Assembly: GCF_003334335.1 (NCBI RefSeq)
Contig: NZ_QOWQ01000221.1
DNA: 315 nt
From: Escherichia coli
Lineage (GTDB): Bacteria > Pseudomonadota > Gammaproteobacteria > Enterobacterales > Enterobacteriaceae
Reading direction: 5' to 3' (one strand)
Shown here piece after piece: positions 1-315 of the stretch. Position numbers and translations under genes: made by a program. The notes below the pieces were generated by a model, which made no database searches, was not told where the DNA came from, and saw only the letters and a list, made by a program, of their open reading frames with translations. Numbering within the stretch: the first letter of the stretch is position 1; each line of letters begins with the position of its first letter.

Positions 1-315
1 TCTACTTCCTCTTCACCGACAAGGATGGCGAAAAATACGGTCGCGCAAACAAACTTTCTGGTCTGGATAAGGCGCTGGCTGCCGGGGCAACTGAAATCAC
101 GAAAGAAGAATATTTTGCCCGCAAAAACGGCACATACACAGGTTCACAACAAAATACTGATGCATCTGACACGACCGCACAACCAGACCTGGTAAAAGTT
201 ACCGCTGACGAAGTAAACAAAATTATGCAGGCAGCCAGTATCAGCCAGCCTGACGCCGATAAGTTGCTTGCTGCCTCTCGCGGAGAATTTGTTGCAGGGA
301 TTAGCGACCCGAATG
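1..315 (+). CDS. Internal fragment of a protein-coding gene, partial at both ends (codons begin at position 3; 104 complete codons, 3..314). Product: hypothetical soluble protein, function undetermined.
   Basis: Seen in sequence: the frame starting at position 3 has no stop codon across all 104 codons. About 43 of 104 codons begin with G (hand count: GCN/GAN/GGN/GTN), the periodicity expected of a true sense frame. Codon choice fits enterobacterial usage (ctg, ccg, gcg, cgc, aaa, gaa, acc, ggt), with no aga/agg/ata/cga/cta. The translation has a normal soluble-protein composition. Positions 1-2 (tc) and 315 (g) cannot complete a stop codon, so the ORF necessarily runs beyond both window edges. 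The only in-frame ATG (225-227) has no Shine-Dalgarno-like sequence upstream and is read as an internal Met. Product identity not recognised from memory; no homology search was possible. Confidence 0.8.

Follow-up and report, generated by a model that had tools for sequence, protein, structure and literature searches.

The 315-nucleotide (nt) window examined here, which is the whole stretch of Escherichia coli DNA that was analyzed, lies in the non-catalytic central region of an 823-amino-acid (aa) lambdoid-prophage exonuclease, and its translation contains two similar decapeptides. An initial annotation, made from the letters of the window, had proposed that they reflect either an ancient internal duplication of a helical unit or a chance convergence of Ala-rich helices. 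Our analysis favors the latter: with a probability of roughly 0.85, the decapeptides are a chance resemblance of short Ala-rich helix-forming segments in two unrelated, independently occurring modules of the protein. This explanation fits the sequence shuffles, the profile comparisons with hhalign, the divergence of the two segments in homologues and the different structural contexts predicted for them. The motif pair is ordinary, and the prophage gene that carries it is well known and very common.

The decapeptide pair does not exceed chance expectation

Translation of frame 3 places the two decapeptides exactly where the initial annotation had put them, 64 codons apart and with six of ten residues shared. 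The likeness that it described in the DNA is also present, with the same base at 18 of 30 positions and with an 18-nt direct repeat (66-83 and 258-275) in which 15 of 18 bases agree. Seventeen of the 18 identical bases fall in the six shared codons, and the remaining four codons match at 1 of 12 positions. Shuffles of the 104-aa peptide encoded by the window gave a 10-mer pair with at least six identities in 52 of 2000 cases (2.6%), the 10-residue window length being a post hoc choice; when the 823-aa protein was shuffled, such a pair arose in 150 of 200 cases (75%). The decapeptide pair has a BLOSUM62 score of 24. When aa 371-530 are aligned with themselves, the best local (Smith-Waterman) alignment has a score of 31 and falls outside the motif pair, and 75 of 200 shuffles reach this score (mean 29.7, standard deviation 5.0). 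Lengthening the motif register in either direction gains nothing in this self-alignment, in keeping with the earlier remark that the flanks align poorly. In 58% of codon shuffles of the window, some 30-mer pair reached 18 identities or more; the shared codons account for the DNA identity, which does not exceed what codon shuffling yields. The motif pair is real, but it is not above chance at the level of protein or DNA, and the initial annotation had itself called the evidence for a duplication weak.

The two segments lie in separately conserved modules

An exhaustive phmmer search with aa 364-524 against 1.84 billion representatives returned 64 proteins, and these matches split the region into two separately conserved modules, A and B. 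Module A has the signature ER.GPFY[FYW]......GRANK..L....G..EI[ST].EE[YH].ARK.G., with 16 invariant columns among 16 diverse sequences (for example R386, GPFY388-391, RANK404-407, E421, EE425-426 and K431), and its invariant residues are mostly charged or aromatic. The first decapeptide (motif 1) reads EKALADGAKE, QEIIAEGNIE, TEMLATGCVE or IKAIGLGAKE in other members of the family; across the 16 homologues G418 and E421 alone are invariant, L415 is L or I, and D412, K413 and A417 vary freely. Module B has the signature D.DK.LAA.RGE[FY][VI].GISDP.DPKW, in which K, L, A, A, R, G and E are the conserved positions of the second decapeptide (motif 2). Its core is kept in 42 sequences of the phmmer match set (E up to 1e-3), and its lead helix is lineage-specific, with other sequence in its place in RecE-type relatives. 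The sole motif positions conserved in both modules are L, A and E.

Within proteins that possess both modules, the two motifs agree at 6 of 10 positions in the closest relatives only, and otherwise at 2-4 of 10. This fall in identity in diverged homologues runs counter to the expectation for a diverged duplication. The motif spacing in five homologues with both modules is 64, 64, 50, 35 and 29 aa, and it varies because the length of the linker varies. The initial annotation had suggested that motif spacing and sequence be compared across orthologues; neither is conserved, with a spacing of 29-64 aa and an inter-motif identity as low as 2-4 of 10. The modules also occur apart from one another: of the long representatives, eight carry only module A, 11 only module B and five the two together. 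Module-bearing representatives differ in the PHROG family of their C-terminal part, which may be a DnaQ-like exonuclease, a RecE-type 'exonuclease VIII', a RecT-like annealase or another 'exonuclease', a distribution that is consistent with mosaic shuffling of the modules.

Two repetitive proteins in the phmmer output, P0044 and P0052, were rejected as relatives, their multi-stretch matches running through short biased segments. Database relatives of the motif region are mostly short entries named 'exonuclease, partial', often with frameshifted tails, probably because multiple prophage copies per genome break short-read assemblies. Homologous-protein searches with the region and with the module A profile returned nearly all short E. 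coli fragments and added little diversity. One partial E. coli protein of 223 aa (P0128) contains module B twice in full, both times with its RecE-type lead helix; the copies lie about 130 residues apart with a cysteine cluster between them, an arrangement that may stem from a genuine large duplication or from faulty assembly.

A closer look-alike pair was seen within module B itself, where ADEVNKIMQAAS (nt 204-239, aa 458-469) resembles nt 249-278 (aa 473-482), 15 residues away. In the homologue P0005 the segment is 14 aa shorter and reads like a fused pair (EDVNKVMAAARGEF). The look-alike pair and the short P0005 segment together suggest an indel between two 'AA' microhomologies. The nearer pair may also be due to chance, since the BLOSUM62 values along it, added by hand without gaps, come to only about 13.

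Predicted structural contexts of the decapeptides

We used AlphaFold2 to model aa 364-524 with the regional alignment, and a full-length model was produced as well. Module A is predicted with a predicted local distance difference test (pLDDT) score of 86-95 and comprises a β-hairpin (390-396 and 399-405), a helix (408-416), a strand (419-422) and a second helix (424-432). Set against these boundaries, motif 1 (pLDDT about 90) is predicted to take in the second half of helix α1, pass through the A-G turn and reach into the beginning of strand β3. Module B has a pLDDT near 50, with short helices at aa 458-467 and 476-481 followed by coil. Motif 2 corresponds to the second of these helices (aa 475-482 when both models are considered, pLDDT about 50-65), which leads into the RGEF.GISDP.DPKW segment. 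The full-length model contains the same elements, with low-confidence linkers at aa 344-384 and 438-462 flanking module A, and shows no confident inter-domain packing (predicted template modelling score 0.26). In these models the two decapeptides are not structurally equivalent.

Neither module has a Pfam domain in a scan of the 823-aa protein, an NCBIfam scan of ten module A sequences gave nothing relevant, and a PDB sequence-profile search with module A gave nothing below E 0.47. Foldseek comparison of the regional model with the PDB gave nothing at E<=0.001, the best match being the UvrC GIY-YIG domain (E 0.35), and significant matches in AFDB50 came only from the protein's own family in E. 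coli and Shigella. The UvrC GIY-YIG domain and the hybrid-binding domain (HBD) of RNase H1 have a β-β-α-β-α type order of elements, like that of module A, and a protein with an RNase H1 N-terminal domain stood at rank 39 of the AFDB50 search (E 0.48). Both identities were rejected by hhalign: a 91-sequence profile of the UvrC GIY-YIG domain gave a probability of 0.1% with module A, and the RNase H1 HBD, for which a human sequence entered by hand was used, gave 0.8% with 5 columns aligned.

Profile comparison and alternative explanations

For the repeat detection on the full protein and its homologues that the initial annotation had advised, hhalign with alternative alignments served as a stand-in. 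The 35-sequence regional alignment (161 aa) compared with itself gave a best off-diagonal probability of 0.1%; the corresponding value for the 22-sequence full-length alignment was 0.4%, from a stretch of the protein unrelated to the motifs. Profiles of module A and module B compared with one another gave 1.4%, in a register that differs from that of the motif pair. These comparisons show no repeat at profile level in the protein or its homologues.

Several observations weigh against reading the pair as a coincidence. Within the 104-aa window alone, the 6/10 match is nominally uncommon in the shuffles; the same codon is used at five of the six shared residues (P about 0.05, given the gene's own codon usage); and L, A and E are conserved at matching offsets in modules A and B. 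The family alignments are moreover shallow (effective number of sequences, Neff, about 2.3-3.5), so that a very old, heavily eroded duplication of about 10 residues retains a small formal probability. The five-of-six codon match is unremarkable for a feature chosen post hoc.

The resemblance might instead be functional, both segments being one short helical recognition motif, [DE]-K-x-L-A-x, that serves the same partner or the same helix-capping or packing role. Both segments are predicted to be helical and K-x-L-A is fairly common in the two module families, but we regard this convergence as improbable: in module A, D, K and the second A are freely substituted (Q-E, T-E, I-K, E-A), the module A segment is predicted to sit in the core of a folded domain and not as an exposed peptide, and the modules are found independently of each other, with no partner known for either.

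An ancient internal duplication, in which a single helical unit gave rise to both modules and left the decapeptides as its last recognisable remnant, appears highly unlikely. It would account for the six of ten residues alike in the same order and for L, A and E at equal offsets, yet the modules show no similarity at profile level (hhalign 0.1-1.4%) and conserve different residues, the flanks of the decapeptides do not align, and the predicted structural contexts differ. The likeness also drops toward the family consensus, to 2-4 of 10 in diverged homologues, the spacing differs among homologues, and each module is found without the other. Identical codons, furthermore, cannot survive as the relic of an ancient event. 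The codon pattern in fact fits neither an old nor a young copy, because an ancient duplication would saturate synonymous sites and a recent copy would leave the intervening codons similar. A recent event at the DNA level, in which a microhomology-mediated patch or gene conversion copied about 18 nt between the sites, would match the 18-nt direct repeat at 15/18 and the identical codons at five of six shared residues, but we find it scarcely credible, as the likeness stops abruptly (1 of 12 bases agrees across the four codons that are not shared), 58% of codon shuffles yield a 30-mer pair that is just as good, and each motif is old in its own family and present separately in distant homologues.

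Relationship to RecE and other protein families

The 823-aa protein matches PHROG 2082 (phrog_2082), 'exonuclease', from end to end (1-823 of 823, 1838 bits). It belongs to this family, whose phage records are named CP-933P-type exodeoxyribonuclease or putative exonuclease, with no notable difference, and the central region of the family has no described function. The sole Pfam domain of the protein is a C-terminal Rv2179c-like (PF16473, DnaQ-like) 3'-5' exonuclease at aa 641-813 (E 2.7e-60). Residues 246-626 match the NCBIfam RecE model NF007259 at 284.9 bits against a cut-off of 1269; identity as the RecE/exodeoxyribonuclease VIII equivalog was rejected, as the score lies under the cut-off, the match covers the central part only and the C-terminal end is Rv2179c-like. 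Our literature search found no paper on Rv2179c with a prophage exonuclease.

The closest comparison is with RecE of E. coli K-12, the exonuclease VIII of the Rac prophage, whose sequence was taken from NC_000913.3 (L003 4790-7387, minus strand). BLASTP aligns aa 262-626 of the exonuclease with RecE 278-592 at 40% identity. RecE lacks module A, and hence motif 1, with a gap in the alignment at the module A site; from module B on the two proteins are nearly identical, including an unchanged motif 2 and the CxxC...CxxC cluster, and 31 of 33 residues are the same between RecE 456-488 and aa 474-506. The two genes occupy the same prophage position, in the early operon beside xis and int, and their products differ at the catalytic end, which is the RecE nuclease domain in one and the Rv2179c-like DnaQ-type 3'-5' exonuclease in the other. 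The nuclease domain of RecE consists of its C-terminal residues 564-866; its N-terminal region has no assigned function and is dispensable for nuclease activity, and full-length RecE is better in linear-linear recombination (PMC11611040). The RecE counterpart of module B falls within this dispensable N-terminal region (PMC11611040).

The cysteine cluster itself, CTACGQTGGGNCPDCG, has a CxxC-x8-CxxC arrangement with zinc-knuckle-like spacing and lies at aa 552-566 (L001 5486-5530), outside the window, in the linker, predicted to be disordered, that joins module B to the exonuclease domain; its counterpart in K-12 RecE is CNACGQTGGDNCPDCG.

Proteins with TPR or HEAT-type repeats resemble the exonuclease in that a single chain contains two short Ala-rich segments that form helices. 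They differ in that here there is no significant self-similarity, the conserved positions and structural contexts of the two segments are unlike, and the spacing is variable.

Source gene and genomic context

The + strand frame 3 is open over all 315 bases of the window and is the annotated reading frame (Table 1). The remaining open reading frames, such as that on the minus strand at 2-220 (72 aa), are mechanical only, and an Rfam scan of both strands gave no match at E<=1. The window matches several E. coli chromosomes at 100%, NZ_CP075652.1 among them, and is present at 80% identity or more in 4,047 of 5,426 complete E. coli genomes, in up to 7 places per genome. Twenty-one lambdoid/Stx phage records match it at 87-96% DNA identity, and the gene is always annotated as an exonuclease.

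Table 1. Features of the 315-nt window; residue numbers are those of the 823-aa exonuclease.
Feature	Position	Strand	Description
Coding sequence, frame 3	3..314	+	aa 391-494 of the 823-aa lambdoid-prophage exonuclease WP_021565031.1; frame open throughout
Module A	3..131	+	aa 386-433 (first five residues = 15 nt upstream of the window); predicted conserved β-hairpin-α-β-α mini-domain
Motif copy 1, DKALAAGATE	66..95	+	aa 412-421, in module A
DNA direct repeat copy 1, GATAAGGCGCTGGCTGCC	66..83	+	partner GATAAGTTGCTTGCTGCC at 258-275, 15/18 bases alike
Inter-module linker	132..203	+	aa 434-457; variable, predicted to be disordered; rich in T, S, Q, D, N; pLDDT <50
Module B	204..314	+	runs past the window to aa 506; lead helix aa 458-468 (ADEVNKIMQAA), core aa ~472-506 (nt 246-314 and beyond) ending.TRD
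Motif copy 2 (decapeptide)	258..287	+	aa 476-485, in module B

In E. coli STEC17-183 the window corresponds to L001 5001-5315, within the coding sequence at L001 3833-6304 (823 aa, WP_021565031.1). The exonuclease gene is flanked by dicB/DUF1482 on one side and by excisionase and integrase genes on the other, and the prophage adjoins rspB. No recT-like annealase gene follows the exonuclease in the annotated STEC17-183 prophage neighbourhood (L001). The surroundings (L001 1-3737 and 8130-10315) include a RelB/RelE toxin-antitoxin pair, a YdaT-family toxin gene, dicB, and DUF1391 and DUF1482 genes, and rspA, the host gene beside the prophage, is recorded as a pseudogene containing an internal stop.

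Implications for the RecE-family prophage exonucleases

The protein combines a RecE-type central region with a C-terminal DnaQ-like (Rv2179c-like) 3'-5' exonuclease domain; modules A and B are probably strung on linkers that are predicted to be disordered, and prophage mosaic recombination probably moves them among proteins that have different catalytic ends. Motif 1 sits in the compact module A, in which, according to the models, L415 and A416 pack on the sheet, and the turn and strand impose constraints on G418 and E421-I422. Motif 2 is a predicted helical lead-in to the conserved and probably extended RGEF.GISDP.DPKW of module B. Module A may be a small domain that binds nucleic acid or a partner protein. 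Module B may be a docking segment that folds only on binding, a role suggested because it is highly conserved yet predicted at low confidence. It is possible, though we hold this tentatively, that the two are undescribed functional units, module A as an orphan, autonomous β-hairpin-α-β-α mini-domain and module B as a conserved docking segment that is found in RecE too.

The 6/10 match is itself of no consequence, being a coincidence in a very common prophage gene. The by-product of the analysis is modest: in the RecE-family prophage exonucleases, the central region here splits into two or more modules, each conserved on its own and shuffled independently, on linkers predicted to be disordered, and one of the modules is an orphan mini-domain with a confidently predicted fold. 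The limits of these modules are sensible boundaries for deletion or pull-down work on the N-terminal portion of RecE-like proteins. Recruitment of a host or phage partner by module B, if it occurs, could help to explain the difference between full-length RecE and the truncated nuclease in linear-linear recombination.
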